This document shows positions 1,683 through 53,752 of a stretch of 64,000 bases of DNA, piece by piece. Position 1 is the first letter of the stretch. Each line of letters opens with the position of its first letter. The stretch comes from a virus, in the IMG/VR virus record IMGVR_UViG_3300045594_000630, one strand, 5' to 3'. The notes below the pieces were generated by a model. It was not told the origin of the DNA and ran no database searches. It worked only from the letters and a program-made list of their open reading frames with translations. A program made the position numbers and the translations under genes.

Positions 1683-1756
1683 CGGGTCGTAGCCCAGCTT
1701 GGTAGGGCGCCTCGTTCGGGACGAGGAGGCCGCGGGTTCAAATCCCGCCAACCCGA
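1683..1756 (+). tRNA. tRNA-Pro(CGG)
   Basis: cctcg-ttCGGga-cgagg. Confidence 0.92.
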
Positions 1757-1847
1757 CACGCCGTGGGAACACGATTGTCAACGACCGTGTTATCATGGAT
1801 AACGCCGCGCTTCACGGAGCGTCGATAACTTAAGAATGCACCATCAA

Positions 1848-1921
1848 CGGGATGTAGCGCAGCTTGGTAGCGCGCTTGCTTTGGGAGCAAGATGCCGCAG
1901 GTTCGAATCCTGTCATCCCGA
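1848..1921 (+). tRNA. tRNA-Pro(TGG)
   Basis: cttgc-ttTGGga-gcaag. Confidence 0.95.
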
Positions 1922-2459
1922 CGATGATCGCCTGATTCTCGTGACTGACTGATCGAGTGACGCTCGTGAAGATCAGCCGCGATGGTGATCTGAATAACTG
2001 AATACAGAACTGCTCGCACCAGTTGGAAGCAAAGTGCGCGACGGCCCGGGTACCGGAATGTGAAAGAACTCACCCTGCTTGGTCACGAAGATCACCATGT
2101 AGTCGATGGTGCAGTGACGGAGCGCCTGAATACAGGATCGAGCATGGGGAAGCCATCGCCCTGATTCTTGAAGGTCCGTATGGATCTGATGGAGATGTAC
2201 ATTGTACGTCAGCAACGCGATGATAACTCATGAACGGGATTACCAGCGTCATTCATGGAATGTTGACGACCCGTAGACATAAACAAGTTCCTTCAGATTA
2301 TCTTCAAAACGATGCAGATCTGCGGTCGGTGCGATGCAGATCTGAGGTCGTCGTCCCACCGGTGAGATGCACCGGCAACCGTTGATGATGCTGTGACCGC
2401 ATCATTGACAGCACATGTGGTCATCGTCGTGCTGGCGGACGTGAAACGCCAGTTCTTAT

Positions 2460-2534
2460 TCCCCGGGAGCAACCTTCGGCGGCTGCGATCGACTGTTAAT
2501 CGATAGAGAGCTGGTTCGACTCCAGTCCGGGGAG
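2460..2534 (+). tRNA. tRNA-Asn(GTT), atypical D arm (G8)
   Basis: atcga-ctGTTaa-tcgat; acceptor tccccgg/ccgggga. Confidence 0.8.
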
Positions 2535-2736
2535 CGATGGTTGAAAAGGGCGAAGATTGTTAAAAGATTGCTCATCATTCTGAATCCACGTGGTAGCTCC
2601 TCGTGGACGATGATAGGAAAGTCCGGAATCGAAAACTGATGACGATCATACTCTGGTCAATGTGCCATACAATCGGGAGGTCCATATCGTAATTCAGCGA
2701 GGCCTAGCGAGTAATTGACCTCAAGGTCCATCCAAT

Positions 2737-2813
2737 GCTTTCATGGCCCAATCGGCAGAGGCGCAGGGCACACTGCAGACCTGTTCATACTGGTTCGACT
2801 CCAGTTGGAAGCA
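2737..2813 (+). pseudogene. Leu-body tRNA-like gene with a 10-nt scrambled anticodon loop
   Basis: Body matches 6485-6558; anticodon arm caggg-cacactgcag-acctg. Confidence 0.65.
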
Positions 2814-2926
2814 CGCAGTATCAGTAGGCTATGAGCTGGCAGCGTGACGCAAGTCATCTTGGTTATCTGTGACCACCAGCGAGCTGAATGCAATAGCAGA
2901 CGGGTGAGTGCAAGGCTCACCATCAT

Positions 2927-3011
2927 GGATGATTCGCATAGAGGCCTAGTGCACTTGTCTTGAAAACAAGAGTGGGTCACACCACCGGGGGTTCGAATCC
3001 CTCATCATCCG
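2927..3011 (+). tRNA. tRNA-Ser(TGA)
   Basis: cttgt-ctTGAaa-acaag; long variable arm. Confidence 0.92.
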
Positions 3012-3121
3012 CGACCCGTACGTTGGGTCCATCTGGCGACACGATGGATTGGCGGTCCATCTTCTCCTGGCGGGGGATAGCCGGTTGATGTGATCGCATA
3101 CGGATTGCATCGCATACAGAT

Positions 3122-3206
3122 GCCCTCATGGCTGGAATAGGTAGACGCGGACGGCTCAAACCCGTCTCCCGTAATGGGGATCTCGGTTCGACTCCGAGTG
3201 AGGGTA
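3122..3206 (+). tRNA. tRNA-Leu(CAA)
   Basis: gacgg-ctCAAac-ccgtc; long variable arm. Confidence 0.92.
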
Positions 3207-3471
3207 CGACGAACACATCGGGCGGCTTAATCACCCGTCCGGTCGTGGGCATACATATGTCGCGCGTGGACGTGATTGATCCACGTGGATAGCCCGTTGC
3301 CAGGCATGTCCCGGCGGAAGTTTGATGCAGATTCTGCGTAGTTCGTCTTCCGTTGGGATCACTTGAAGACAGGTGCGGCCCGTTGGCTGCGGTGGAAGTG
3401 GGGTCCGAGTACCCAACGGTACCGGTTAGACTCCGGCTCCGGCGCGTGGGAACTCATCCATCTCCATATCT

Positions 3472-3545
3472 GCTCTCTTAGCCCAATTGGTAGAGGCGAT
3501 AGACCAAGGATCTATTCAGTGCGGGTTCGAGTCCCGTGGAGAGCA
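3472..3545 (+). tRNA. tRNA-Leu(AAG), C33, short variable loop
   Basis: ataga-ccAAGga-tctat; same body as the Leu TAG and CAG genes. Confidence 0.8.
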
Positions 3546-3896
3546 CAGATCTCATGACATCCTTACGGATGTCCTCTGAGATTCAGGGTCGATTCACTGT
3601 GGTGGTGATGAACATGCTCAAGGCCCGTCATGCAAGCATAGGAGTATGGAGCGAAGTTCCTATGTGGCTGCTGGTGCTGCGTAAACTGGTCGCGGTACAC
3701 GAATAACCAGATGATGTCCGGACTACTTGCCGGACAGACATGACAAGCAAGATGCTAACCACTGATTGCTTCCAGCATTAAATTGACTGGATAATGGCGA
3801 GATGGTGAAAGCCCATCGAGTGGAGTTAAAACCCGCGGCTTAATTAACCGTGGGGATCAGGGAGACTATGAATCGATCTGTTCACGCCACGCTTAC

Positions 3897-3969
3897 GCCC
3901 TTATAGCTCAGATGGTAGAGCAGCTGACTCTTAATCAGCGTGTCCGGGGTTCGAGCCCCCGTGAGGGCA
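3897..3969 (+). tRNA. tRNA-Lys(CTT)
   Basis: gctga-ctCTTaa-tcagc. Confidence 0.95.
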
Positions 3970-4017
3970 CTTATGAGCATTGATAGCATTGTGGCGCATT
4001 GATGATCATATGATTAT

Positions 4018-4101
4018 GGATGGTAGGCTGAGCGGTTAAGGCGCCTGTTCGCTAAACAGGTTCGTGTCACAGCGTGGTGGGTTCGACTCCCGCATCATCC
4101 G
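4018..4101 (+). tRNA. tRNA-Ser(GCT) copy 1, C33
   Basis: cctgt-tcGCTaa-acagg; paralog of 11519-11602. Confidence 0.82.
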
Positions 4102-4224
4102 CGGTCGGTAGGGGTTGTCCTCACTGGGCGATCAGCGACCTCATGAGCGCACGCATGGGATCAGTCACAGATCGTTGCAGTGCAGAACCCCTTCAGAAGA
4201 TGGACTCCGTGAAGGTCCACGAAT

Positions 4225-4297
4225 GCCGTCATAGCTCAGATGGTAGAGCGGCGAGCTGAAACCTCGCAGGTCGCTGGTTCAAGTCCAGTTGTCGGCA
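4225..4297 (+). tRNA. tRNA-Phe(GAA)
   Basis: gcgag-ctGAAac-ctcgc. Confidence 0.93.
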
Positions 4298-4298
4298 C

Positions 4299-4382
4299 GG
4301 TGCGGCTGAGCGACGGTCGCTCAGGTGGCCGTAACCCACCCGTTCGTAATGAGCATTGCAGGTTCGAATCCTGTCCGCACCA
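4299..4382 (+). tRNA. tRNA-Tyr(GTA), C33, atypical D arm
   Basis: ggtgg-ccGTAac-ccacc; acceptor ggtgcgg/ccgcacc. Confidence 0.75.
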
Positions 4383-4406
4383 CTCAGATCTGAAACAGAT
4401 CTGTAT

Positions 4407-4477
4407 GCGTCCATCGTATAATGGTAGTACTTGAGCTTCCAAACCTCATGATCTGGGTTCGATTCCTAGTGGGCGTG
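4407..4477 (+). tRNA. tRNA-Trp(CCA), probable (Gly-like D arm)
   Basis: tgagc-ttCCAaa-cctca with a C31-C39 mismatch; G73 and acceptor resembling 7618-7690. Confidence 0.65.
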
Positions 4478-4629
4478 CGAGACCAAGCCGTGAGGTGAGG
4501 TCATGGTTGACTGCATGATCGCCTACAATGCGTGTGGCTAGACACTGAAGTCATGCAGACAGCGTCGTCACTGGTATCGGCGGTGACGGCAACCGGTTCT
4601 CGTGTCCGGCTTACCAAAATACGACCAAT

Positions 4630-4702
4630 GGGGGCATGGCGCAGCTGGTAGCGCAACTCCTCAGCAAGGAGTAGGTCGCGGGTCCGAGTCCCGCTGCTTC
4701 CA
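4630..4702 (+). tRNA. tRNA-Ala(AGC), C33, C55
   Basis: actcc-tcAGCaa-ggagt; G3-U70, A73. Confidence 0.82.
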
Positions 4703-4929
4703 CTTGGATCCATCAAGACAGGGCGGCGTCAGCAGCATGATGGATCCGCGACACGCCGGTGATTGAGATCGGGCTGACTATGTTACAATGGTATTGTCCA
4801 CGAAAACGATGGATCACCCGAAGCCTGATAACCTAATCTAAGTCAATCATCTGGATCCATTGTCCACAGCGTATGCTCAGGATGATGGCAGGATGTCAAA
4901 GTCCCCGCGATGACGATAAACCCGCGAAT

Positions 4930-5010
4930 GCCCCTATGGTAGGAATTGGTAGACACGGTCGACTTAAAATCGATTGCTTAGGCGTCCCGGTTCGAGTCCG
5001 GGTGGGGGTA
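4930..5010 (+). tRNA. tRNA-Leu(TAA)
   Basis: gtcga-ctTAAaa-tcgat. Confidence 0.92.
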
Positions 5011-5125
5011 CAAGGTCGCGCCTAGGCGCGACCGCTCATCGGATCCATGTGATTCGATGAGCATGCAGTACCGTGAGATGATGCGGGTTCGAGTCCGCCT
5101 GGCAATCATTAACGGTGACGGAGTT

Positions 5126-5197
5126 GATCTAGTAACTCAATGGCAGAAGCTACTCCATTTATTGTGGAAATGCGGGTTCGAATCCCGCCTAGTGATC
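5126..5197 (+). pseudogene. degenerate tRNA (loop ttTATtg)
   Basis: Intact T arm gcggg-ttcgaat-cccgc; 2-nt insertion in the acceptor; weak D arm. Confidence 0.45.
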
Positions 5198-5282
5198 CGT
5201 CACAGATGATGCTGTGCGTCAATGGCGCATTGGAATAGATTCAACATTCTAATGGGGCCAGTCATCCAGCGTCCGCATGAAT

Positions 5283-5356
5283 GCTTTCATAGCCCAATAG
5301 GTAGAGGCGATGGATTTAGGATCCATTCAGTGCTGGTTCGAGTCCAGTTGAAAGCA
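5283..5356 (+). tRNA. tRNA-Leu(TAG), short variable loop
   Basis: atgga-ttTAGga-tccat. Confidence 0.9.
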
Positions 5357-5359
5357 CAA

Positions 5360-5446
5360 TGTCCGAATCAACTTAACGGCAGAGCAGCGGCCGAAACGCC
5401 GTGCGCGGGTCATTCCCGGCCTGTAGGGTTCGACTCCCACCGGACA
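5360..5446 (+). pseudogene. class II tRNA-like gene with a 6-nt anticodon loop
   Basis: gcggc-cgaaac-gccgt; variable-arm hairpin; ttcgact T loop. Confidence 0.4.
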
Positions 5447-5587
5447 GGAGCTGTATGCAAGTGGTGACGATCATGAGCATACGGTTCACAGCGTGGCGAA
5501 GATCTTGACGATGATCTTCATCACGCACGTTTGGCTCTATCATCGCTTGGCGATGATTGCAAGGTTCATCCCAAGGAGCCAATTCAT

Positions 5588-5659
5588 GGCCGTGAGGTCC
5601 TACGGTTGGACGCCTGCCTGTCGAGCAGGTTGCAGCGGGTTCAACTCCCGTCATGGTCG
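5588..5659 (+). tRNA. tRNA-Asp(GTC) copy 1
   Basis: cctgc-ctGTCga-gcagg. Confidence 0.88.
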
Positions 5660-5904
5660 CAAGGTGCCTGGTGTCTGCGCCGAGGATCAGCCCCTGGCTG
5701 ATCCATGACACCCGGTGGAAACGGCATGGTGACATGAAAACAGCATGGATCCATGATACGCCCTCCGTCTGTTACTTTCCGTCGGTGATGCTGAGGCGGC
5801 GGGGTTAACGATCTGTATTGTAGCGGATCGCTGCCGGCACGACCACATGGTCTTGAATGGACATGAAGCATCTCACGTGACGTCCGTGAAGCGTCACTTA
5901 AATT

Positions 5905-5984
5905 GGTGCGTTGGCAGAGCGGCAAATGCGGCTGGCTGTAAACCAGCTCTTTCGGGTTCGGGGGTTCGAGTCCCTCACGCACCA
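5905..5984 (+). tRNA. tRNA-Tyr(GTA)
   Basis: gctgg-ctGTAaa-ccagc. Confidence 0.93.
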
Positions 5985-6129
5985 CACAACATGTTTGGAT
6001 GGGTTAAAGGACACCAATGGCCCCATCCTGTTGACAGTGCTCACTGTCAACAGCGTGTGATCGTGCAGTGCAGGTGCCCAGTCGACCACTGCACGGGATA
6101 GTCCTCATGATGACGATAAAAGCATGAAT

Positions 6130-6200
6130 GCCTCTATAGTTCAAAGGAAGAACTTCGGACTTTTAATCCGCAGATCGGATATCGTAATTCCGTGGGGGCA
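6130..6200 (+). tRNA. tRNA-Lys(TTT) with aberrant T loop ATCGTAA
   Basis: tcgga-ctTTTaa-tccgc; acceptor gcctcta/tgggggc. Confidence 0.7.
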
Positions 6201-6484
6201 CGATGGTCATGTGGATTGCAACTGCGTGATCACGACTCGAATCTGCAGATTCGGGAATATGGATGCAAGTGAGCACAAGCCGCTGGTTGTGGTTCGAATC
6301 CCGCTCCTCAATGGTTATACCGGCGAGGGCGCGCCAATCGGTAGAGCGGGCGGCTGAACTCAACTGCATTCATCATGCAAGCATGTGGGGGTGTTCGACT
6401 CCCGCCTAGGGGCTCCATCGTGAGAGCGGTGGACACGCCCTTGGTGGTCTAGGGGTCATGGCGCTTCATATTGCTTGCACTTAT

Positions 6485-6558
6485 GCTTCCATAGCCCAAC
6501 AGGTAGAGGCGCAGGCTTCAGGAGTCTGTCAGTGCCGGTTCGAATCCAGTTGGAAGCA
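6485..6558 (+). tRNA. tRNA-Leu(CAG), short variable loop
   Basis: caggc-ttCAGga-gtctg. Confidence 0.88.
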
Positions 6559-6695
6559 CGGGCCACTAAAGATGTGAGTTCGCTCTGAAATCTAGCTAGA
6601 TACATCAATTGACCAAGGATGGTAACGTTGCGGAGTCATGATCCGTATGACGCGGATGTCACACGATGTTGGCATCATGCATCACCATTCGATAT

Positions 6696-6769
6696 GCTCT
6701 CATAGCCCAATGGATCAGAGCGCTTGTCTACGGAACAAGAGGGTGCGGGTTCGAGTCCCGCTGGGAGCA
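6696..6769 (+). tRNA. tRNA-Arg(ACG)
   Basis: cttgt-ctACGga-acaag. Confidence 0.93.
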
Positions 6770-6795
6770 CCGTGACCACATGGTGTGGTCATTAT

Positions 6796-6866
6796 TGCCC
6801 ATTCGTCTAACGGCAGGACGAAGGTCTTTGGTACCTTTAAAGTTGGTTCGAATCCAGCATGGGCAG
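6796..6866 (+). tRNA. tRNA-Gln(TTG)
   Basis: aaggt-ctTTGgt-acctt. Confidence 0.92.
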
Positions 6867-6867
6867 C

Positions 6868-6940
6868 GCTTCTCTGGCTCAATGGTTACAGCATCTGACT
6901 CTTAATCAGAGGATTGTGGGTTCGATCCCCACGGGGAGCA
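6868..6940 (+). tRNA. tRNA-Lys(CTT) copy 2
   Basis: tctga-ctCTTaa-tcaga. Confidence 0.9.
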
Positions 6941-6974
6941 CTTGGGGACATTCTGGTGACAGATGTCTACCATA

Positions 6975-7014
6975 GGGGCGGCTATATACCATGGTTCAAA
7001 TCCATGGCGCTCCA
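6975..7014 (+). ncRNA. tRNA-Ala-like minihelix (acceptor plus T arm only)
   Basis: ggggcg/cgctcc with G3-U70 and A73; ccatgg-ttcaaat-ccatgg; 8-nt linker replaces the D and anticodon arms. Confidence 0.5.
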
Positions 7015-7056
7015 CGACGGATGATGTCAGATCTGCTCCACATCGTCCTCACGTAT

Positions 7057-7129
7057 TGCTTGATAGCGCAACTGGGAACGCGCTCCGCTCTGGACGGAGA
7101 GATTGCAGGTCCGAATCCTGCTCAAGCAG
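7057..7129 (+). tRNA. tRNA-Gln(CTG), C55
   Basis: ctccg-ctCTGga-cggag. Confidence 0.88.
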
Positions 7130-7217
7130 CTTCACAGGTTTGGTGGCTAGCGTCGGCGGGTTGATACTGCCGACGCCCGTAGCGAGGGAGAGTCCTCGTG
7201 CAGATCTGTGGATTCTT

Positions 7218-7292
7218 GCCCTTGTAGCTCAGCGGATCAGAGCATCGGTCCTCGGAACCGAGTTGTCGCAGGTTCGAATCCTGTCAGGGGCA
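7218..7292 (+). tRNA. tRNA-Arg(TCG), C33
   Basis: tcggt-ccTCGga-accga. Confidence 0.85.
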
Positions 7293-7330
7293 CTGGCGAT
7301 GGTGCAGGCAGTGATGCTTGCGGATCGCCT

Positions 7331-7375
7331 GCAGCGTCACCGGGTCAGGGTGGGAACACAGCAGCCCAGCGCTGT
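7331..7375 (+). ncRNA. ffs: minimal SRP (4.5S-like) RNA, domain IV/helix 8
   Basis: cagcgt-cacc-ggg-tcagg-gtg-GGAA-cac-agcag-ccc-a-gcgctg: GGAA tetraloop with the symmetric and asymmetric loops of the SRP consensus. Confidence 0.8.
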
Positions 7376-7377
7376 TT

Positions 7378-7450
7378 GGGGTTGTAGCTCAGATGGTAGA
7401 GCGCTTCGTTCGCATCGAAGAGGTCGCGGGTTCGACTCCCGCTAATTCCA
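7378..7450 (+). tRNA. tRNA-Ala(CGC)
   Basis: cttcg-ttCGCat-cgaag; G3-U70. Confidence 0.92.
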
Positions 7451-7532
7451 CTGACCTTGGATCTGGTCTTACCATTGATGGGGCGCTTAGCTCCGTCATC
7501 TTCTGTACCTAGGCTGGTCCGAGTGTCTTCAT

Positions 7533-7615
7533 GGTGCGTTGGCAGAACGGCGAATGCAGTCGATCATACAGATCGGCATCTTCGGGATACGGGGGTTCGA
7601 GTCCCTCACGCACCG
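7533..7615 (+). pseudogene. Tyr-body tRNA-like gene with extended anticodon arm and G73
   Basis: Paralog of 5905-5984; arm gtcgatc-ataca-gatcggc. Confidence 0.6.
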
Positions 7616-7617
7616 CA

Positions 7618-7690
7618 TCGTCCGTGGCGTAAATGGTAGCGCAGCGGTCTCCAAAACCGCAGATTGCAGGTTCGAGTCCTGTCGGGCGTG
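7618..7690 (+). tRNA. tRNA-Trp(CCA)
   Basis: gcggt-ctCCAaa-accgc; G73. Confidence 0.9.
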
Positions 7691-7724
7691 CTATGACTGC
7701 AACCTGTAAAAAGGGTAGTCGTAT

Positions 7725-7796
7725 GCCGGTATAGCACAATGGTCAATGCTTCTGCTTAGTAAACAGATGATGATGGTTCGATTCCATCTATCGGCT
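7725..7796 (+). tRNA. tRNA-Thr(AGT)
   Basis: tctgc-ttAGTaa-acaga (C31-A39 mismatch). Confidence 0.82.
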
Positions 7797-7797
7797 C

Positions 7798-7871
7798 GTT
7801 CGCGTGGCGCAGTTGGTTAGCGCGCTTCCATGACACGGAAGAGGTCGCCTGTTCGAGTCAGGCCGTGAGCA
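7798..7871 (+). tRNA. tRNA-Val(GAC)
   Basis: cttcc-atGACac-ggaag. Confidence 0.92.
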
Positions 7872-7872
7872 C

Positions 7873-7945
7873 GCCTCCATAGCTCAGATGGTAGAGCGGC
7901 TCTCTCGTAAAGAGCAGGTCTCCGGTCCGATTCCGGATGGTGGCT
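7873..7945 (+). tRNA. tRNA-Thr(CGT), C55
   Basis: gctct-ctCGTaa-agagc. Confidence 0.9.
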
Positions 7946-7975
7946 CTAGTGGAACAGATCTGTATCCACGATCAT

Positions 7976-8047
7976 GCGGGTATCGTACATCGGTAAGTAC
8001 ATCTTTCTGATGAGAAGAAAAGCGGAGTTCGACTCTCTGTACCCGTA
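7976..8047 (+). tRNA. tRNA-Ile(GAT), Gly-like body
   Basis: tcttt-ctGATga-gaaga; A73. Confidence 0.75.
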
Positions 8048-8071
8048 CTGGTGACAGACTGCTGTCATCAT

Positions 8072-8144
8072 GGGGACGTAACTCAATTGGTAGAGTGCTT
8101 CCCTTGCAAGGAAGATGTAGCGAGTTCGAATCTCGTCGCCTCCA
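8072..8144 (+). tRNA. tRNA-Ala(TGC)
   Basis: cttcc-ctTGCaa-ggaag; G3-U70. Confidence 0.92.
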
Positions 8145-8267
8145 CGGCGCCCGTTCAACGGGCTATGTCATTAGAAGCGTTCTAACGCGCATTAGACGTG
8201 AGACCATCATGAAGATGAGTGTTCATTCATCTTCATGGTTATCTCGCTTAGAACGCAATCTAAGCAT

Positions 8268-8339
8268 CCGGATGTAGTACAACGGTTAGTATAATTGTCT
8301 GATACACAATTGACGATAGTTCAACTCTATCCATCCGGA
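8268..8339 (+). tRNA. tRNA-Ile(GAT)
   Basis: attgt-ctGATac-acaat. Confidence 0.88.
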
Positions 8340-8406
8340 CTATGGATCCATATGATGTGGACATGTGAGCAAGCATTGAGCCCGTCATGATGGATCCATT
8401 CTGCAT

Positions 8407-8480
8407 CGCTGCGTAGCTCAGTTGGTGAGAGCGTTCGACCCATAATCGAGAGGTCGGTGGTTCGAGTCCACCCGTAGTGA
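8407..8480 (+). tRNA. tRNA-Met or Ile2 (CAT), C33
   Basis: ttcga-ccCATaa-tcgag; positions 1-72 paired. Confidence 0.82.
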
Positions 8481-8601
8481 CGATCCTGTTAGCATGACGA
8501 CTGGTCATCTCATGCTGATGGGGTAAGAATGAGAGCAGCGTTGGATTGACCGATCCGCGTGGATTTGCGTCCGTTAGTGGCGTGATCCCCCATTCGATTA
8601 T

Positions 8602-8674
8602 GGTCCTATGGAGCAACGGTCACCTCGTCTGATTCTCAGTCAGAAGATTCCGGGTTCGATTCCCGGTGGGACTA
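8602..8674 (+). tRNA. tRNA-Glu(CTC)
   Basis: tctga-ttCTCag-tcaga. Confidence 0.92.
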
Positions 8675-8892
8675 CGCAGCATTGAGTACATGTCCGGTTC
8701 AATGGGCACATCCAAATAGTCTCTCAGGATCAATGTGAGGATGGGTCAGATCATGATGGAAGTCCTGTAGATCGTGGTCATCATGCTGCACGCAACATAC
8801 GGGTCTAGCGGTCCCGTCGGTGATCATTGCGAGCATTACAGCGCATCGTGCTCGCATGATCTTACAGATCCTCCGTCAATGGATCTTATTAT

Positions 8893-8964
8893 GGCCTTGA
8901 GGTCCTCCGGTTGGACGCCTGCCTGTCGAGCAGGTTGCAGCGGGTTCGATTCCCGTCATGGTCG
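8893..8964 (+). tRNA. tRNA-Asp(GTC) copy 2
   Basis: Near duplicate of 5588-5659; one acceptor mismatch. Confidence 0.85.
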
Positions 8965-8965
8965 C

Positions 8966-9036
8966 CGTGGTGTGGCCGAATGGTTAGGCGGCGGTCTGCA
9001 AAACCGTATAAGTCAGTTCGATTCTGATCACCACGT
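8966..9036 (+). tRNA. tRNA-Cys(GCA)
   Basis: gcggt-ctGCAaa-accgt; U73. Confidence 0.92.
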
Positions 9037-9039
9037 CTT

Positions 9040-9353
9040 GAGTTCCGCTTGACGTCGCGCGTCTAACAGGCGTGAGGAAATTCGGGGCATCATAGGGCAG
9101 GGGTGTGGATTAGACCACCGATCGTGAGATCAGCGATAGCGCCGCAGAGACCATACCGCCGATGGATCCATACGGGTCACAGGCAAGGGTGAAAAGCGTG
9201 AGGTAAGAGCTCACGGGATAATCTTCGCGAGGAGATCCTTGGCAAGCCGACCCTGATGAAACCACAAGTCGTGCTGGGCGGCCCGTCCAATAGCACAGGT
9301 AGCGGGATCAGATGGATGGCGTCTTAGACAGAACTCCGGTTACGGTGGAACTC
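9040..9353 (+). ncRNA. rnpB: RNase P RNA (bacterial type A-like, compact)
   Basis: P1 gagttccgc/gtggaactc; CR-I gaggaaattcgggg; agcgccgcagaga; accgccgatgg; aagggtgaaaag-ggtaagagc; CR-V acagaactccggtta. Confidence 0.9.
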
Positions 9354-9378
9354 ATGAACGATCTGCTCGACACTCCGG

Positions 9379-9407
9379 TTGTCAAGATGCTCGATCAGTG
9401 ATATGAT
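9379..9407 (+). promoter_or_regulatory. internal sigma70-type promoter of the array
   Basis: TTGTCA-17 nt-TATGAT with extended TG. Confidence 0.55.
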
Positions 9408-9488
9408 GGATCATGTTGTTCCTGATGACAACAGAAGCTTGATAACAGGATAGTGATTGACCCGATGAAGTCAGTAAACTCATCATAT

Positions 9489-9562
9489 GCCCGCATAGCC
9501 CAATGGACTAGAGCGCCAGTTTCCTAAACTGTAGGTTGTCGGTTCGAATCCGACTGTGGGCA
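9489..9562 (+). tRNA. tRNA-Arg(CCT)
   Basis: ccagt-ttCCTaa-actgt. Confidence 0.9.
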
Positions 9563-9735
9563 CTTGGACACTCCGGTGAAGCTATCCTCATGTGAAGACG
9601 TAGGGGCTTGACAGGGGCTGGTGGAGTGGACAATCGTGTAGGCAATGCGGTTAAGCGTCGTCAATGGTCGCAAAGTAGGCGGAAGCGTTGACAAGCATGC
9701 CGATCCCAGCAGGATGGCGCCATCTTGCTGGTTAC

Positions 9736-9809
9736 GCCTCGGTAGTCTAATGGATCAAAACGCCACTCCTCTAAAGTGGATAGTATGGGTTCGAATCCCA
9801 TTCGAGGCA
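9736..9809 (+). tRNA. tRNA-Arg(TCT), C33
   Basis: ccact-ccTCTaa-agtgg. Confidence 0.85.
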
Positions 9810-9810
9810 C

Positions 9811-9885
9811 GTGGACTATGGCTCAATGGTAGAGCGACGGATTGTGGCTCCGTAGGTGCGGGTTCGATTCCCGCTAGCCCAACCA
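9811..9885 (+). tRNA. tRNA-His(GTG) with G-1, A73 and encoded CCA
   Basis: acgga-ttGTGgc-tccgt. Confidence 0.88.
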
Positions 9886-9926
9886 CCGATGAGAATGTCA
9901 ACAGATGTTGACAAGAATCATCGTAT

Positions 9927-10001
9927 GGCCCCGCGGTGTGCTTGGTCTGCGCATACGTGACTTTCAATCACATGGTGACGGTTCGAGTCCGTCCGGGGCT
10001 A
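9927..10001 (+). tRNA. tRNA-Glu(TTC)
   Basis: cgtga-ctTTCaa-tcaca. Confidence 0.85.
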
Positions 10002-10030
10002 CCCTCCATGAGACATGGATGAACGATCTT

Positions 10031-10101
10031 GCCCCATTGTCGCCGGTTGCGCAACGATATCTTATAAACATTGTAAGAGGGTTCAACTCCTTCATGGGGT
10101 A
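10031..10101 (+). tRNA. tRNA-Ile(TAT), atypical D arm
   Basis: gatat-ctTATaa-acatt; acceptor gccccat/atggggt; A73. Confidence 0.6.
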
Positions 10102-10266
10102 CTTGTCGGGGAATGGCATAGTCTCCAGCGCACGTCATCCTAGGTGGCGTGGTCAACTGGCGGCAAGCGCCAGCAGATCTGATCTGTCGCTTCCCGTAAG
10201 AACAGCTCCTCTCCCCGACCACATCGTGATATCTTGTACACGACATTGGTATCATGGTGCTTGCAT

Positions 10267-10337
10267 GCGGATGTAGCCCAATGGTAAGGCGTCAGTCTTC
10301 CAAACTGATTACGCGGGTCCGATTCCCGTCATCCGCT
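10267..10337 (+). tRNA. tRNA-Gly(TCC), C55
   Basis: tcagt-ctTCCaa-actga; U73. Confidence 0.9.
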
Positions 10338-10493
10338 CTGAAGGCCAACAGCTCCTGGACTAGCGATCCGAGAGTTGCATAAACGGTGTGGTAGTCTGTT
10401 GGCCTGTAACACGCGCTGCGTCTCATGTGCCGGCAAGCGCCGTCACGCAGGCTATATCGGACACTCACGTGGTGAGACAGGGTGTCCACCAAT

Positions 10494-10566
10494 GCGGACA
10501 TGGTCTAGCTGGTAAGACGCGACCTTCCCAAGGTTGAGATCGCGGGTTCGAGCCCCGTTGTCCGCT
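10494..10566 (+). tRNA. tRNA-Gly(CCC)
   Basis: cgacc-ttCCCaa-ggttg. Confidence 0.92.
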
Positions 10567-10693
10567 CGATCGTCATTGCGGTAATGGCTGGCCGGGCAGT
10601 AATGGCGTTGATACCCGGAACTGCGCTCCTTGTGGATTCGATTGTATCCACGCAGGGTTAGGCGATCACGATGGAGCTTGTCGCCGCCATTAT

Positions 10694-10766
10694 GCTTCCG
10701 TAGCTCAGATGGCAGAGCGCCTCGGTCACATCGAGGATGTCGATGGTTCAAGTCCATTCGGAAGCA
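10694..10766 (+). tRNA. tRNA-Val(CAC)
   Basis: cctcg-gtCACat-cgagg. Confidence 0.92.
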
Positions 10767-10767
10767 C

Positions 10768-10844
10768 TGCGGGGTCGAGTAGCAATTCGGTAGCTCTCGT
10801 GGCTCATACCCACGGTGTTGCAGGTTCAAATCCTGCCCCCGCTA
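10768..10844 (+). tRNA. initiator-like tRNA-fMet(CAT)
   Basis: cgtgg-ctCATac-ccacg; U1-U72 mismatch; only two of the three G-C pairs. Confidence 0.8.
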
Positions 10845-10885
10845 CTAAGATCTGCGCTCATGAACGCAGATCTGCATGCAGTCTT

Positions 10886-10961
10886 GCTCCTGTAGCCCAG
10901 TCCGGCCCAAGGCGTCTGCCTTACACGCAGAAGATCCATGGTTCGAATCCATGTGGGAGCA
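10886..10961 (+). tRNA. tRNA-Val(TAC)
   Basis: tctgc-ctTACac-gcaga. Confidence 0.92.
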
Positions 10962-11105
10962 CGGCGGAACCTACTTGCAAGAGTCATCGTGCTGATAGTT
11001 CCCGAACGGGAGTAAGACGAGTGCAGGGAATGCCCTGGACTCGTCGAGAATTCAATGGTCGACTGGTTCCTTTCGCAATGCTGGCATTCAAGCATTGCAC
11101 TCAAT

Positions 11106-11178
11106 GCGGACATAGCTTAGTTGGTAAAGCGCGACCTTGCCAAGGTCGAGACCGCGGGTTCAAGTCCCGTTGTCCGCT
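11106..11178 (+). tRNA. tRNA-Gly(GCC)
   Basis: cgacc-ttGCCaa-ggtcg. Confidence 0.95.
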
Positions 11179-11182
11179 CTTC

Positions 11183-11255
11183 GCCTTGTTAGCTCAGATG
11201 GTAGAGCGGCCGCCTTGTAAGCGGCAGGTCTCCGGTTCAAGCCCGGAACATGGCT
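11183..11255 (+). tRNA. tRNA-Thr(TGT)
   Basis: gccgc-ctTGTaa-gcggc. Confidence 0.93.
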
Positions 11256-11256
11256 C

Positions 11257-11341
11257 GGATGATTCGCATAGTGGTCGAGTGCACTTGTCTAGAAAACAAG
11301 AGTGGGTCACACCGCCGGGGGTTCGAATCCCTCATCATCCG
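11257..11341 (+). tRNA. tRNA-Ser(AGA)
   Basis: cttgt-ctAGAaa-acaag; near duplicate of Ser(TGA) at 2927. Confidence 0.88.
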
Positions 11342-11518
11342 CTATTGATGATGGATAGATCGGTCTTCAACGATCTTATCAGCAGTCAAGAAACATGATA
11401 GCAGGGATTGAAGATACTTGCTGTCATGGATCGTGGTGGACACGCCCTGGTGCATAGCCAGGAACACGATCTAGTCAGGGTGGCTCCATGCCATCACTGA
11501 CAGCGCCATGATCATTAT

Positions 11519-11602
11519 GGATGGTAGGCTGAGCGGTTAAAGCGCCTCACTGCTAATGAGGTTCGGGTAACACCGTGGCGGGTTCGACTCCCGCATCATC
11601 CG
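11519..11602 (+). tRNA. tRNA-Ser(GCT) copy 2
   Basis: cctca-ctGCTaa-tgagg. Confidence 0.92.
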
Positions 11603-11857
11603 CAAGATCATGCCGGCAGTGATGTGGACATGATCCCTCCGCCGCAGGGGAACTGGGGAGCCGTGTGGGATCCCCGACTGCGGTCATGTCGGCTCTGCCC
11701 ACAGACTGCCGGCATCGTGGAGATCCCTGGTCGCGCAGGTCAAGACGCGCCGTGGAGGCTGGCCGTGCTCCACGATCATCAAAAACCAGGCGGATATGCT
11801 AAACAGAGCTAATAGGAATCTGGGAACCATGCTGTCTGCATGTGAGACAGCATGTAT

Positions 11858-11943
11858 GGAGAGTGTGATCTATTGGTAAGGTCGACCCGCTTCGAATACG
11901 GGCGCCGGTAATACGGTTAGGGGTTCGATTCCCTTACTCTCCG
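11858..11943 (+). tRNA. tRNA-Ser(CGA)
   Basis: cccgc-ttCGAat-acggg; long variable arm; G73. Confidence 0.85.
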
Positions 11944-11958
11944 CAATCATTGTCACGG

Positions 11959-12888
11959 TCATACCATCGTCGGTATGAAACCGATCTGGAAGATCTGCTG
12001 TCGTCCTCCCATGTTCAATATGACAGCTCTCCCCCTTGGCCTAGCCGGGAGATCATACCTCGGGTTCTCCGAGAACAAATCCCTGAATGCTTTCCAATTC
12101 TGATGTCCGCAATAGATCTTCGTCATAGAGTTCGATACGATCTCACGACCAGAAGTACTGATCGTATCAAGATAGCCAGTGATCATGAAGACATAGATGC
12201 CGGCGCTCCTGCACAGCCTGACCAGATAGTTGATAGTGTCAGTCATGAGCGAGATCTTCTCTGCCGCATGGACAGTTCCCATTCTAGACGGGCTCAGCGT
12301 GGAGACCCCTCCGAGCAGCCAGTCAGCTGGATCAATAATGATCCATTCAGTCTTCCTCGACGATAAGATCTTCTCCTCGCCCTCAGCGTCACCAACCGTG
12401 TTAGCAAGCTGCTTGTACGTGTCATTCATCTCAACCCTCAGACGAGTGATGAGATCATACGCCTCATCTATGCTCCGGGCCACACGGTCACCTTGACGAA
12501 GATTCTTCTGGACTCCATTAAGATCAATGACGTTCAGTCTGATCCCATCATGACGGAGTCCGTGCTCGATGATCGTCCTCATAAGAACGGTCTTACCGCT
12601 TCCTGTTCCTCCGGATACGATCACACTGGGATTCTTGTTAAGATCGAGGATCACATCCTTACCGCCCTCTCCAGCACCTATGCGGACAGTTGAGCGCGGA
12701 TCGTCATCATCGTTCCTGGAGTCGGTATCGATCGGCTTGTATATGAGCTCGTTGGGGAGATCGGGGTCTGGAGCACTGACCCCAAGTTGCTTCAGATTGG
12801 AGTCAAGGGTCTTCCATGTCGGGGTTCCCGGATTCACCGTGACGAGGAACGGCTTGCCGTTAAGCGCTTCATCCCTACTTGACAACAA
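11959..12888 (-). CDS. FtsK/SpoIIIE-like P-loop ATPase
   Basis: VILDLNKNPSVIVSGGTGSGKT Walker A; LVRLCRSAGI motif; start uncertain. Confidence 0.75.
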   Translation of the reverse strand: MLSSRDEALNGKPFLVTVNPGTPTWKTLDSNLKQLGVSAPDPDLPNELIYKPIDTDSRNDDDDPRSTVRIGAGEGGKDVILDLNKNPSVIVSGGTGSGKTVLMRTIIEHGLRHDGIRLNVIDLNGVQKNLRQGDRVARSIDEAYDLITRLRVEMNDTYKQLANTVGDAEGEEKILSSRKTEWIIIDPADWLLGGVSTLSPSRMGTVHAAEKISLMTDTINYLVRLCRSAGIYVFMITGYLDTISTSGREIVSNSMTKIYCGHQNWKAFRDLFSENPRYDLPARPRGRAVILNMGGRQQIFQIGFIPTMV

Positions 12889-12959: not shown

Positions 12960-14714
12960 TGTAAACGTTAGATACCTGTTTTTCTTGTTATTTATGTTAC
13001 CGTCGTGATAATGATTAACGAGTTGCCTTTATAATGATCTTGAATGGTATAATATTCATTATCATAGTCAAGGGGTGAATAACCGTGAGGAAGAGCAAGA
13101 TCATCAGCATGGCGCTGAGCCTTAACCTGAGCGATGCTATCATTACCCCGTCACCCGGGAAGCGGCAGCCAAGCGTTACGGAATGGCCACCTTACATCAT
13201 GAGCACCCTACAGACTCAGACGAGGGATCAGAATAAGATCATAAGGCTTAACAAGGGCTTGGATCCTGATGACATGACTACTGGTCTCAAGTACTCGGAT
13301 CCCCTCATCCGCAAGAACATGATCATCCCGTCCAGCGTCAAGGAGAGCAGGGCGAGCGCATGGTTGAACACGGCATGGAGTCTGATTAACGACCAGTTAG
13401 AGTCATGGCGCTTACTCGCTCCATGGGCTCAACGATCCAGGCTCTTTGACGAAATCCGCGAGGGACCGAGCCTCGGGTTCAAGGACTTCAGGAGGAAGCA
13501 CGGGTACGAGTACCTGGACTACCAGCTCTGGTCTAACGTGCAGAGAATGAAGAGTAAGCCAGGACTCCCCGTCGTGAAGTCAGCGAGAATCTCGTACTCC
13601 AAGATGGGAGTACAGTGCTCCGGGGCGCCATGGTACGATAGTAAGACTGGAGTCTTGCACTGGGAATGCGTGAACATCGGTCAAGCGCGCCTAGACTTCT
13701 CATGGCACGCTCCGTGGATTCGTGCACGATACCCTCGCAGGTCCCTTCAGACCGGACGGATCAGCCGAGGAACGGTCCAGGCCGTACCCATGACTAGCCA
13801 CTCATTCAGCGTGGGGTACGGGGAGGACGCGAGCGGTAAGATCCGTGCTAGCATCTCTCGTGAGAATAACCGAGTAACATTCAGCCCGGCGACGGATGAC
13901 GTACGATTCACCTTCACGATTAAGGCTACTCGGCCATCGATACGCAAGCGTGTTAAGGCGGTTGCCGGGTTTGATATCGGGATGGAGTCGCACGCGGTGA
14001 TAGCCGGCCGGCGCGTGAGCCTGAACGGCGGAACGAGCAGGCCGCTCACGCTGAGCCGGGAGGGATTATCCCTCCAGCGTCACATCATCTCGCTCCAGCT
14101 AAAAGAACGGGAGGCTCTCGCGAAGCTCTCGAGGATCATGCAGGATCATGAGCCTGTGGCGAACCCGAGGCTCGTGGAGGGTGCTATCCATCTTCACGAG
14201 AAGCTGGAGGCGCTGAAGGCCGCGATGGACTGGGTCGCCGCGGACTCAGCCGTGAAGCACTGCCGTCCGGGTGACGTGCTCGTAATGGAGGAGCTCTCAT
14301 GGTCTGGCGGTGGCGCGGTGAAGTTCCGTCACGGCCGGCAGCAGGCTCGTGTCCAGCACCTCGCCGCTAGGCGCGGTTTCAGGATGGTTAGGGTGAACCC
14401 TGCCGGATCTAGTCACGAGTGTCCATCATGCCACGCCGCGTACGATGCGGATCCGAGGAGTCACGCCTTCAAGTGCAGCTCTTGCGGGTACGCGGGGGAT
14501 AAGGATGACGCGGCCGGTTTTATCATCGCACTCCGCGGCTTGGAGAAGCTCCGCAAGAATAACAATTACGGGTTGAGCGCCGTGGTACAGACGGTCCGCT
14601 CTCGTCGTCCAAGAGGCGACGGTTATGCCCATGCTAGTAACCAGGGTCACCGCGAACGAGCATGCTCGGTAACGGCGGCGGGTCTAACCAAGAATAACGG
14701 TTACTAGCAACTGT
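12960..14714 (+). mobile_element. non-autonomous tnpB-only element, copy 1 (IS200/605/607 superfamily)
   Basis: Homology with copy 2 runs from TGTAAAC to AACTGT; no tnpA; omega-RNA overlaps the last ~46 codons. Confidence 0.85.
13085..14707 (+). CDS. tnpB: TnpB RNA-guided endonuclease, 540 aa
   Basis: RuvC FDIG / VMEEL / DKDDAA; CPSC-CSSC zinc finger. Confidence 0.85.
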   Translation: MRKSKIISMALSLNLSDAIITPSPGKRQPSVTEWPPYIMSTLQTQTRDQNKIIRLNKGLDPDDMTTGLKYSDPLIRKNMIIPSSVKESRASAWLNTAWSLINDQLESWRLLAPWAQRSRLFDEIREGPSLGFKDFRRKHGYEYLDYQLWSNVQRMKSKPGLPVVKSARISYSKMGVQCSGAPWYDSKTGVLHWECVNIGQARLDFSWHAPWIRARYPRRSLQTGRISRGTVQAVPMTSHSFSVGYGEDASGKIRASISRENNRVTFSPATDDVRFTFTIKATRPSIRKRVKAVAGFDIGMESHAVIAGRRVSLNGGTSRPLTLSREGLSLQRHIISLQLKEREALAKLSRIMQDHEPVANPRLVEGAIHLHEKLEALKAAMDWVAADSAVKHCRPGDVLVMEELSWSGGGAVKFRHGRQQARVQHLAARRGFRMVRVNPAGSSHECPSCHAAYDADPRSHAFKCSSCGYAGDKDDAAGFIIALRGLEKLRKNNNYGLSAVVQTVRSRRPRGDGYAHASNQGHRERACSVTAAGLTKNNGY

Positions 14715-16749: not shown

Positions 16750-17838
16750 ATGGACAATGGACATGATTCTTCGAACTACGTGGGGATAGATCTGTTCAGG
16801 AGAACCCTACCCGTGTTCAAGAAGGGTCTTGAGGCCAAGGACAGGCTTGCCAAGCGTGACGGAACGATCTCCAGATCTGAGAAGGTCAAGCTCCGTCGCC
16901 TGGCGACGCTTGGTGACGCTGCGTACCAGGAGGTTTGCGACGCTTGTGAGTGGATGGTGAATCGCGCGGTCAGGAAAGAGCTGAACAGGCCAAGATCGTT
17001 CCATGTCATCATGAATGACGAAGATCTTAGGCAGGCTGGATTCGAGGCTGTCTTCAAGATGATGAAGACCGCTGATCTGAGTAAGATGCACGGATCGGCC
17101 GTGAACTATCTTATGCAATGGATATCCACGAATGTGAGCAGGGCTGCCCTCAAGGATGAGGCCGAGTTCGGCATGAGTTCTAGTAAGCTCGTCATCATGC
17201 GGAAGATAGCAGCCGTCCGTGCGAGACTGGGAAAGACCCTTGGCCGGACCGCAACCGACGATGAGGTCTACGAGTTCTTGCAGTCAGGTGCTGCCGACAT
17301 GAAGACAATGTACGGTAGATCTGACGGGTCATCAAAGCATCATGCTAATGATAAGATCTCGCTGGATATGATCCATGACCAGTCCAGGCTGAATTCAGGG
17401 ACGCCGATGAAGTTCGCCGTTACAGACCCGATAGCCATTGACGCTGAGGTCAACTCTGAAGATCTTGGGGTCTCTGACTATGATGCTGTTCTTGAACCTC
17501 CAACCAAGACATTCTGGACAAGCTGGATGAAGCATGTCGGCATCAGTGAGAAGCAGTGGGACGTCATTGCCATTCTGACGGGGATCTATGACACCGGACC
17601 TGACATCAAGCGTCCGAGACGGGCGGCAAGACTAGTCAATGAGTTCTACATGCTTGTCGGAAGTAAGACCGGTGCTATCAACCTGTATGCGAAGCAATGG
17701 TCTAAGGATCATGGGCCCGGGCAGTGGGATGTCTTCTCCGACATAGAGCTTTCCGATGAGATACCAATCCACGGCGTCGATAAGAACGGAAGTCCGTTAT
17801 TCAACGTACTTAAGATCAATAGGGAGACGGAAGAATGA
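16750..17838 (+). CDS. divergent sigma-70-like factor
   Basis: Region 2-like EDLRQAGFEAVFKMMK...YLMQWI; leaderless after TGATATCTT. Confidence 0.5.
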   Translation: MDNGHDSSNYVGIDLFRRTLPVFKKGLEAKDRLAKRDGTISRSEKVKLRRLATLGDAAYQEVCDACEWMVNRAVRKELNRPRSFHVIMNDEDLRQAGFEAVFKMMKTADLSKMHGSAVNYLMQWISTNVSRAALKDEAEFGMSSSKLVIMRKIAAVRARLGKTLGRTATDDEVYEFLQSGAADMKTMYGRSDGSSKHHANDKISLDMIHDQSRLNSGTPMKFAVTDPIAIDAEVNSEDLGVSDYDAVLEPPTKTFWTSWMKHVGISEKQWDVIAILTGIYDTGPDIKRPRRAARLVNEFYMLVGSKTGAINLYAKQWSKDHGPGQWDVFSDIELSDEIPIHGVDKNGSPLFNVLKINRETEE

Positions 17839-47196: not shown

Positions 47197-48423
47197 ATGG
47201 ATACAGTCTTCATACCAAGCAAGGGCAGATCGTCTAATTGCAGTACGCATCGGAGTCTAGAGGCGTTCGACATGCATGACTGGGTGTACGTGGTGGAGCC
47301 CGACGATTACTGGGCATACATCCACCGACTCCGTGAAGACGGTGTCTACATGCCAGAGACTCACGTGTACTCATTTGATGTCGAAAGATTCAAAAGCCCT
47401 AGAAGCGCTGAGCACCCGGACGGATTCGACTACTGTGATGATCTTGGCTGGAAGCCAGGTCTGACAACAGGACCGGGTCCGGCTAGGAACGCCCTGCACC
47501 AGCTGGCCATTGACATGGGTCTTAAGCACTACTGGATGATGGATGATGACATCCAGAGCTTCTCGATCGACGCCTTCTACTTCCAGAAGAACATCTGGAC
47601 GAAAGACATTGCGAATGGAGGGGTGAAGGAGCGCCGGATCAGTCTGATCGACACGTTTGATCTGTATCAGAGATTCCTTGACAAGTTCAGTAATGTCGGC
47701 ATAGCCGAGCTTGACAAGCAAGGCCTTGTCCAGAATCATCGTAAGAACAGCCAGTTCTCAGTGAACTGCAAGGCTTACTCATGCATCAGGTTCAGAACCG
47801 ATGGCCCGAAGATACCGTGGAGATCACGGTTCAATGATGATGTGACGATCTCCCTAGACTATGAGAAGCGCGGATTCGTGAACGTATCTAGTAAGATCAT
47901 GGCGTACCAGACACCTGACACGCAGAGACAGAAGGGTGGCATGACGGAGGCGTTCCATCAGGAGGGGACGCTTCGTAAGGTCAAGTATCTTGTCAAGCAG
48001 TATCCGGAGACCACATTCGCCATCTTGAAGTTCGGAAGGATCCATCACTTCGTGGACTACTCGAAGTTCCGTCAGCGTCTGAGCAGGAATCCGGGCGTCG
48101 AGAATCTTAAGGATCTGCTCCCGGAGTCTTACGGCCCGTACAGATCGTTCATCCCGTATCTTGACGGGGCGACGACCGAGGCTGAGAAGGATCTGCATTG
48201 GAAGAATGTGGACGATGAGCTCCGCAGAGAGTACATTCTTGAACAGCGGAAGATCTATGGTGACTTCTTCGGCGCTGGGAACAAGGCGACCTATGACAAG
48301 AGGATCATCCCCGGATTCATCTCACCGTCTGCCGTGAATGACAACGATGATGAAGATCAGGATATTACAGACAATGAAGACATTGCTGACAGCACTGATG
48401 GCAGCGAGGAAGCACCATTCTAA
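47197..48423 (+). CDS. GT-A glycosyltransferase, TET-associated/GREB1-like type
   Basis: VFIPSKGR, VVEPDDY, GPARN, WMMDDDI, NDDV, QKGG. Confidence 0.7.
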   Translation: MDTVFIPSKGRSSNCSTHRSLEAFDMHDWVYVVEPDDYWAYIHRLREDGVYMPETHVYSFDVERFKSPRSAEHPDGFDYCDDLGWKPGLTTGPGPARNALHQLAIDMGLKHYWMMDDDIQSFSIDAFYFQKNIWTKDIANGGVKERRISLIDTFDLYQRFLDKFSNVGIAELDKQGLVQNHRKNSQFSVNCKAYSCIRFRTDGPKIPWRSRFNDDVTISLDYEKRGFVNVSSKIMAYQTPDTQRQKGGMTEAFHQEGTLRKVKYLVKQYPETTFAILKFGRIHHFVDYSKFRQRLSRNPGVENLKDLLPESYGPYRSFIPYLDGATTEAEKDLHWKNVDDELRREYILEQRKIYGDFFGAGNKATYDKRIIPGFISPSAVNDNDDEDQDITDNEDIADSTDGSEEAPF

Positions 48424-53407: not shown

Positions 53408-53752
53408 GGGGTCGAAAGGAATCGATTGATCCTCATAACTGAACAGTGCAAGCCGCTGAACCACGATAGCACAGCGTATAAACTATTCGTGAAATTACAG
53501 AAGCTGCTTACAACACTTCTGACTTCGCTCTAGCAGCGTAGTCCGTGAACATGATGAGGTCACTATCTTGTAGTCATGTTCGCGTCGCAACAAGATAGCG
53601 AGGGCGAGATCGGGTCGACTCGTCTGGTTGCAGACCCGGAACCGAGTACCTAGGCCGATCCATGTCCGGTGGTACTTGTTAAGACATGGGAAGCTTGTAA
53701 TCCACTGCCAGGGCGAGGAGACAAGACCCGGGTTCGAATCCCGGCGGCTCCA
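53408..53752 (+). ncRNA. ssrA: tmRNA
   Basis: 5' GGGGTCGAAAGGAATCGA; 3' T arm and cggctcca with G3-U70; tag frame ending ...AAYNTSDFALAA-stop (53482-53541). Confidence 0.92.

Follow-up and report, generated by a model that had tools for sequence, protein, structure and literature searches.

The 64,000-nucleotide (nt) stretch of DNA analysed here, referred to as the window, belongs to the IMG/VR virus record IMGVR_UViG_3300045594_000630 and carries a large array of tRNA genes, several of which have lost a uridine that is nearly invariant elsewhere. ARAGORN found 51 tRNA genes in the window, all on the plus strand at 1683..11944 (within 10.3 kb) and decoding all 20 amino acids, together with a tmRNA at 53408, and 45 tRNA matches in the window lie above the Rfam threshold. 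The array also encloses a bacterial class A RNase P RNA (9039..9358, plus strand; Rfam RF00010, 166.5 bits). U33, which forms the U-turn, and U55, which becomes pseudouridine, are among the most conserved bases in biology. The initial annotation had reported C in place of U33 in seven of these tRNAs, and C in place of U55, within a TCCGA T loop, in four (Ala(AGC), Gln(CTG), Thr(CGT) and Gly(TCC)). When the ARAGORN structures were parsed and the letters read back directly from the window, all seven C33 genes and all four C55 genes were confirmed.

We regard the window as a portion of a huge phage of roughly 350 kb, or of an element that at least resembles one; a JGI contig of 349,703 bp carries its proteins. 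Two relatives form a clade with it. The first, G001 (IMGVR_UViG_3300044557_000292), is 419,707 bp long with direct terminal repeats, is 100% complete according to CheckV, and was found by a D-arm pattern search of IMG/VR, in which one locus (L121) lay in G001; the 120 other viral loci served as background. It has a 50-tRNA array with the same gene order as the window and an RNase P RNA inside it (L122 2575-2936, minus strand, 148 bits), at a different place in that order. A coupling-ATPase orthologue 69% identical to that of the window adjoins the G001 array. The second relative, L128, lies on a 491-kb JGI contig and was recognised in a protein database search by a coupling-ATPase orthologue 60% identical to that of the window; the stretch used covers the last 19 tRNAs of its array only. 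Most orthologous tRNAs of the window and G001 are 70-90% identical, with Pro(TGG) (1848-1922) at 99% and the second copy of Ser(GCT) (11519-11603) at 100%. In both genomes Ser(GCT) has A in place of U at position 8.

Among the C33 genes, all on the plus strand, tRNA-Leu(AAG) (3472..3546; Rfam 47.6 bits) has a short variable arm and the anticodon loop CCAAGGA, with C33 at 3505, and its orthologues in G001 and L128 have U33. The first copy of tRNA-Ser(GCT) (4018..4102; loop TCGCTAA, C33 at 4050; 40.4 bits) is made redundant by the copy at 11519, which has U33 and scores 52.3 bits. A Tyr(GTA)-like gene (4299..4383; loop CCGTAAC, C33 at 4330) is below the Rfam tRNA threshold, has in addition C8 and an over-long D helix, and is without an orthologue in G001; its sole Rfam match is to tRNA-Sec, at 31 bits, which is under the cut-off of that family. 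tRNA-Arg(TCG) (7218..7293; loop CCTCGGA, C33 at 7251) has an identical loop in L128, where the tRNA is 86% identical, and U33 in G001. The elongator-like tRNA-Met (CAT anticodon; 8407..8481; loop CCCATAA, C33 at 8440) corresponds to a G001 orthologue of 81% identity with U33, and tRNA-Arg(TCT) (9736..9810; loop CCTCTAA, C33 at 9769) has C33 in L128 too and U33 in G001. The seventh, tRNA-Ala(AGC) (4630..4703), carries both changes, C33 at 4662 and C55 at 4684, and Infernal alignment to the Rfam tRNA model places C at both model positions, 33 and 55; the C33 is common to the window and G001 and is not found in L128.

The other three C55 genes, also on the plus strand, are tRNA-Gln(CTG) (7057..7130; T loop TCCGAAT, C55 at 7111), whose orthologues in G001 and L128 have U55, tRNA-Thr(CGT) (7873..7946; T loop TCCGATT, C55 at 7927), which shares its C55 with the 88% identical G001 orthologue and not with L128, and tRNA-Gly(TCC) (10267..10338; T loop TCCGATT, C55 at 10319). 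The orthologue of the last in L128 (89% identity) has U55, and that in G001 has U55 but C33.

A mis-registered anticodon loop was considered and rejected as the source of C33, since the 7-nt loops stand between unambiguous 5-bp stems, so that no alternative register restores U, and Infernal agrees. G53, T54, C56, A58 and C61 are unchanged in 50 of the 51 window tRNAs, the lone exception being Lys(TTT) at 6130 with an A54/T58 swap, whereas positions 33 and 55 do vary, and nearly always to C; as the neighbouring invariant bases are kept, the loops are not eroding in general. One further tRNA without U33 was noted at 2737, with C before the anticodon in an 8-nt anticodon loop.

Compared with other viral tRNAs, the clade is clearly richer in C33 and is also enriched in C55. 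The background of 1243 tRNAs from the 120 other IMG/VR loci contains C33 in 38 (3.1%) and C55 in 10 (0.8%), while the window has C33 in 7/50 and C55 in 4/50 (Fisher p = 1.2e-3 and 1.5e-3, respectively). The corresponding numbers are 8/49 and 3/49 for G001 and 5/19 and 0/19 for L128, which gives 20/118 and 7/118 for the clade (odds ratios 6.5 and 7.8; p = 1.4e-8 and 2.9e-4), although these counts are not fully independent, as a few states are inherited. C33 in viral tRNAs generally is not rare. In the background, however, it clusters on a small number of anticodons with G34 (Val(GAC) 4/9, Ala(GGC) 2/4, Ile(GAU) 5/41), whereas in the clade it is spread over many anticodons and occurs in neither Ile nor Val. 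Several phage groups have a high C33 content as a lineage trait: some unrelated IMG/VR arrays (L055, L003, L109, L094) reach 9-15% C33, with 4/26 in L055, and 21 of the 34 arrays having at least 15 tRNAs have none.

Several narrower patterns were tried and dropped. A link of C33 to A34, to C34 or to Arg tRNAs showed no clear excess at such small numbers; C33 and C55 in one tRNA is true of Ala(AGC) only and is not a rule; and co-occurrence of C33 and C55 across unrelated arrays gave an odds ratio of 3 with p = 0.2. An association of C33 with C32 is marginal in the clade (18/20 vs 64/97, p = 0.03) and absent in the background. Position 8 was not relied on, because ARAGORN calls non-U there in 15% of cases even in the background.

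The variants look like working genes rather than relics. The initial annotation described their stems as otherwise intact, and this holds for 10 of the 11 variants, whose Rfam tRNA scores of 40-67 bits are in the range of the rest of the array; it fails for the Tyr-like gene at 4299. In orthologue pairs that include a variant, 59 double and 22 single changes preserve pairing, against 27 breaks (81 to 27), and in canonical pairs the numbers are 98 and 27 against 31; since pairing-preserving changes prevail in both groups, the fold is under selection in variant and canonical tRNAs. The codons that the variants read are heavily used, with CTT and CTC making up 46% of Leu codons, GCT and GCC 56% of Ala, AGA 22% of Arg, ACG 46% of Thr, CAG 88% of Gln and GGA 27% of Gly. 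Apart from the Tyr-like gene and the first Ser(GCT) copy, nine variants are the sole array genes for their anticodons. Judged by compensatory change in the stems and by the major codons read, the possibility raised at the outset that these tRNAs are non-functional finds no support, and the variants are probably working genes that take part in translation, the marginal Tyr-like gene excepted.

Codon usage gave a related observation: AGA and AGG account for 48% of Arg codons at 53% G+C (27 plus-strand open reading frames, 16750-50670), and the array has both Arg(TCT) and Arg(CCT), so that the codon usage of the phage may depend on its own tRNAs.

There is precedent for C33 in a working tRNA, as the eukaryotic cytoplasmic initiator tRNA-Met is a natural functional tRNA with C33 (PMC9023262). 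In that case, however, it is one conserved species with a dedicated role and an A54/A58 signature, whereas here C33 is found in elongators of many specificities and is not conserved.

The comparison with G001 shows how positions 33 and 55 have changed. Window and G001 tRNAs were paired by anticodon, similarity and order, which gave 44 pairs, about 38 of them with at least 70% identity. Position 33 differs in 7/38 pairs and position 55 in 5/39, and every difference is between C and T; by comparison, position 54 differs in 1/39, 56 in 0/39, 58 in 1/38 and 37 in 1/36 pairs. When exchange rates are calculated between the window and G001 over sites with T in at least one partner, T/C exchange amounts to 21% at 33 and 15% at 55 (D loops 15%, variable region 18%, stems 29%), while T/purine exchange is absent from both positions (0%) and runs at 18-22% elsewhere. 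U8 to C was seen in 0/35 and T54 to C in 0/41 of these sites. An equal rate of T-to-C change at unconstrained positions had been named at the outset as an observation that would speak against a special explanation, and in one sense this is what is seen, as the rates at 33 and 55 match those of unconstrained T sites. With exchange restricted to C and T and proceeding at about the neutral rate, the two sites behave as pyrimidine-only positions.

The distribution of states among the three genomes agrees with turnover. Four states are common to two of them, namely C33 in Ala(AGC) and C55 in Thr(CGT) in the window and G001, and C33 in Arg(TCG) and Arg(TCT) in the window and L128, and about 12 C33 or C55 states are lineage-specific. 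Those confined to the window are C33 in Leu(AAG) and in the Met gene at 8407, and C55 in Gly(TCC) and Gln(CTG); those confined to G001 are in Thr(AGT), Cys, Arg(CCT), Glu(TTC), Gly(TCC), a second Met and a second Gln, and those confined to L128 are in Thr(TGT) and Ser(TGA). U is nevertheless kept in most clade tRNAs, with 83% having U33 and 94% having U55.

From what was observed, namely the bases themselves, the enrichment across the clade, the rates of exchange, the preservation of the stems and the usage of codons, we favour with moderate confidence the view that throughout the clade both U-turns have been relaxed from U to any pyrimidine, as tolerated variation in working accessory tRNAs. 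According to this reading, position 33 of the anticodon loop and position 55 of the T loop would in this clade require no more than a pyrimidine, U-to-C transitions would arise at both at the ordinary mutation rate, and the C variants would be tolerated in tRNAs that are still folded and used, and would then revert or be lost, so that the set of such tRNAs would differ from phage to phage and shift with time, at about 15% C33 and about 6% C55. Such relaxation would reflect weak selection on supplementary, short-lived phage tRNAs that stand beside the host's own set, and editing would play no part in it.

Several points weigh against this relaxation. Neither site is fully neutral, as the preference for U still stands at about 5:1 for 33 and 16:1 for 55, suggesting either that C carries a slight cost or that mutation is biased towards T. 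Near-neutral C/T exchange would also be produced by efficient C-to-U editing, and it is compatible with a fast arms race as well. The 6-8-fold richness of the clade over other viral arrays is not accounted for by relaxation. The comparison draws on two relatives only, one of them partial, with some counts sharing ancestry, and for the more diverged pairs (70-75% identity) orthology is based on anticodon, similarity and synteny only.

The initial annotation had offered nuclease evasion and editing as explanations, but as general accounts both have the balance of evidence against them. The stronger of the two, which we consider possible but rather unlikely, is that U33C and U55C were selected to spoil a host defence nuclease that cleaves tRNA (tRNase) and reads the U-turn uridine, whether of the Schlafen/Cash type or an anticodon nuclease, so that the variant phage tRNAs would survive while host tRNAs are cut. 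Both altered bases are the U of a U-turn, the enrichment is specific to clade and position, and the variants decode major phage codons. A concrete candidate for the selective agent is CbCash, a CRISPR-associated Schlafen tRNase switched on by cyclic tetra-adenylate (cA4), which cleaves T loops immediately 5' of U55 and anticodon loops at an equivalent UC site; mutating U54 or U55 singly is enough to stop it from cutting, and its authors posed phage tRNA escape from it as an open question (PMC13462974). No other described enzyme has its recognition centred on these two U-turns, that of the T loop (U55) and that of the anticodon loop, and CbCash would give positions 33 and 55, both U-turn uridines, a common meaning. 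However, it is a host defence enzyme and not part of this element, and as such is a candidate selective agent only.

A broad U-turn nuclease should drive most tRNAs to C, but 83% and 94% keep U33 and U55, respectively; the C states are mostly not kept in the orthologues of relatives, and exchange is no faster than at unconstrained T sites. A protective change held in the same tRNA across related phages would be expected of evasion, and here only the four states listed above are common to two of the three genomes, against about 12 that are lineage-specific. C34 is found in only 5/20 C33 tRNAs, which shows no preference for the U33-C34 context cut by CbCash. Gamma-toxin, an anticodon nuclease, is indifferent to U33C (PMC2275089), and G001 is without RtcB-type repair and so gives no independent sign of tRNase pressure.

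Phage tRNAs with changed loops have been proposed or shown to resist tRNases, in mycobacteriophage C1 against VapC-type nucleases (PMC10264068) and in T5 against retron and PARIS effectors (PMC11555353), and these systems resemble the present one in having accessory tRNAs with an altered anticodon loop, in large clusters of large phages. The changes in C1 and T5 are specific to particular tRNAs and fall where named host nucleases are known to cut or to recognise them, whereas here the structural U-turn uridines are affected in many tRNA species, the T loop is included, and most changes are not conserved between relatives. The published evasion hypothesis likewise concerns tRNA-specific changes at known cut sites, with no mention of U33 (PMC10264068). 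A stronger form of evasion, in which the clade is replacing the U of both U-turns under pressure from a Schlafen/Cash-like host tRNase, and thereby gaining C-turn elongator tRNAs that still decode major codons, is in our opinion doubtful, and less probable than evasion in its general form; if true, it would be the first defence evasion via the T loop and via the most conserved base of the anticodon loop.

Decay, in which the variant genes are redundant copies drifting towards pseudogenes, is improbable for the set as a whole, and describes single members better. The Tyr-like gene at 4299 fails the Rfam tRNA threshold and has C8, an aberrant D arm and no orthologue; the first Ser(GCT) copy scores lower than the second, which is 100% identical in G001; and a paralogue derived from Tyr at 7533 has A33. 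The other nine variants, on the contrary, are the sole genes for their anticodons, score 47-67 bits and serve major codons, their stems are kept by compensatory change as well as those of canonical tRNAs, and the other invariant T-loop bases are untouched. Decay is thus a fair description of the Tyr-like gene only, and it may possibly apply to the Ser(GCT) gene at 4018 too.

C-to-U editing, in which a deaminase turns C33 and C55 into U after transcription and the genomic C is silent or serves as a switch, predicts that U sites which are otherwise invariant exchange only between C and T and do so at a neutral rate, as observed here, but is given a very low probability, because no suitable enzyme was detected in the window or in G001 and no C-to-U editing of tRNA is known in bacteria or phages. 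The element-encoded deaminase that the initial annotation proposed was not detected, either as an H[AVS]E...PCxxC zinc-deaminase motif in six frames of the 64-kb window, out of a contig of about 350 kb, or as a tblastn match there to the deaminase of G001. The complete G001 genome has one gene with the cytidine deaminase (CDA) fold (two Pfam models), which encodes a 153-aa protein like dCMP deaminase or ComEB, without an RNA-binding domain; neither TruB nor RtcB was found in that genome. Furthermore, C is present in a minority of tRNAs only, and one enzyme would need to act on two different loops of many tRNAs. A precedent is reportedly found in Methanopyrus kandleri, where the archaeal CDAT8 restores U8 from genomic C8, so that there, as here, a C stands in the genome at an invariant tRNA uridine; in that organism, however, most tRNA genes are said to carry C and an enzyme combining CDA and THUMP is encoded, whereas here the affected tRNAs are a minority and an enzyme of that sort was detected neither in the window nor in G001.

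Phage accessory tRNAs with non-canonical loops are a known kind, and a literature search found no description of C33 or C55 enrichment in phage tRNAs. What is new here is the parallel change at U55, the diffuse spread over anticodons and the comparative evidence of drifting, non-conserved states. In the clade, one tRNA in six is without U33 and one in seventeen without U55, yet these tRNAs are folded and serve the commonest phage codons; read from the genomes, this would show that bacterial translation can work with C-turn tRNAs. The clade therefore offers natural test substrates for what the U-turn uridine and pseudouridine-55 contribute, and it also bears on selection by CbCash-like nucleases on phage tRNAs and on how weak selection on accessory tRNAs is. 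If the changes are only tolerated drift, they are a caution against reading deviations at "invariant" positions of phage arrays as adaptations without comparative evidence.

Some other tRNAs of these arrays are unusual in different ways. The tRNA at 2737-2814 folds well (36.5 bits) and is kin of a family of short "Leu" tRNAs; its loop is ACACTGCA, in which ARAGORN reads a 4-base anticodon. That family is represented by the tRNAs with Leu anticodons AAG, TAG and CAG (3472-3546, 5283-5357 and 6485-6559), which are 75 nt long and without the long variable arm of bacterial tRNA-Leu, and the array also contains normal long-arm Leu(CAA) and Leu(TAA). The short "Leu(TAG)" type recurs across many unrelated IMG/VR contigs and in G001. 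The Tyr paralogue with a long arm at 7533-7616 (loop CATACAG, A33, anticodon TAC) is 83% identical to the Tyr tRNA of G001 and below the Rfam threshold, and is either a decaying duplicate or a re-aimed tRNA. In L128, a tRNA at 1816-1890 has the amber-reading anticodon CTA in the loop CCCTAAA, and thus C33.

Further searches for relatives and for the host returned little. IMG/VR searches with the Tyr-tRNA pattern and the coupling protein returned G001 as the sole relative; the coupling-protein homologues P0012, P0013, P0004 and P0007 had no array adjoining them in the stretches examined; and two metagenome scans gave nothing useful, with one chance match without tRNAs. Homologues of the coupling protein nevertheless point to dozens of further members of the clade. 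In the search for relatives, the proteins encoded at 11959-12888 and 190-1068 had no homologues outside the window's own record, and that at 16750-17838 had no IMG/VR match. An exact search of 185,579 species genomes with the 5' 43 nt of the second Ser(GCT) copy, aimed at the host, gave no match.

Outside the array, the window encodes a VirB11-like ATPase and a TraG/TraD-like coupling ATPase, gyrase/topoisomerase subunits, an NAD-dependent ligase, TelA, a PIF1-like helicase and ParB, and it has genes like those of type IV secretion systems. It also encodes a TET-associated glycosyltransferase (47197-48423), which hints at hypermodified DNA bases. In L128, a 540-aa TROVE (Ro60-like) protein is encoded at 3361-4983, directly after the main tRNA run. 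Finally, the window contains two TnpB genes, at 13085-14707 and 51167-52792, whose open reading frames are each about 540 aa long and have a Cas12f-like TNB domain.

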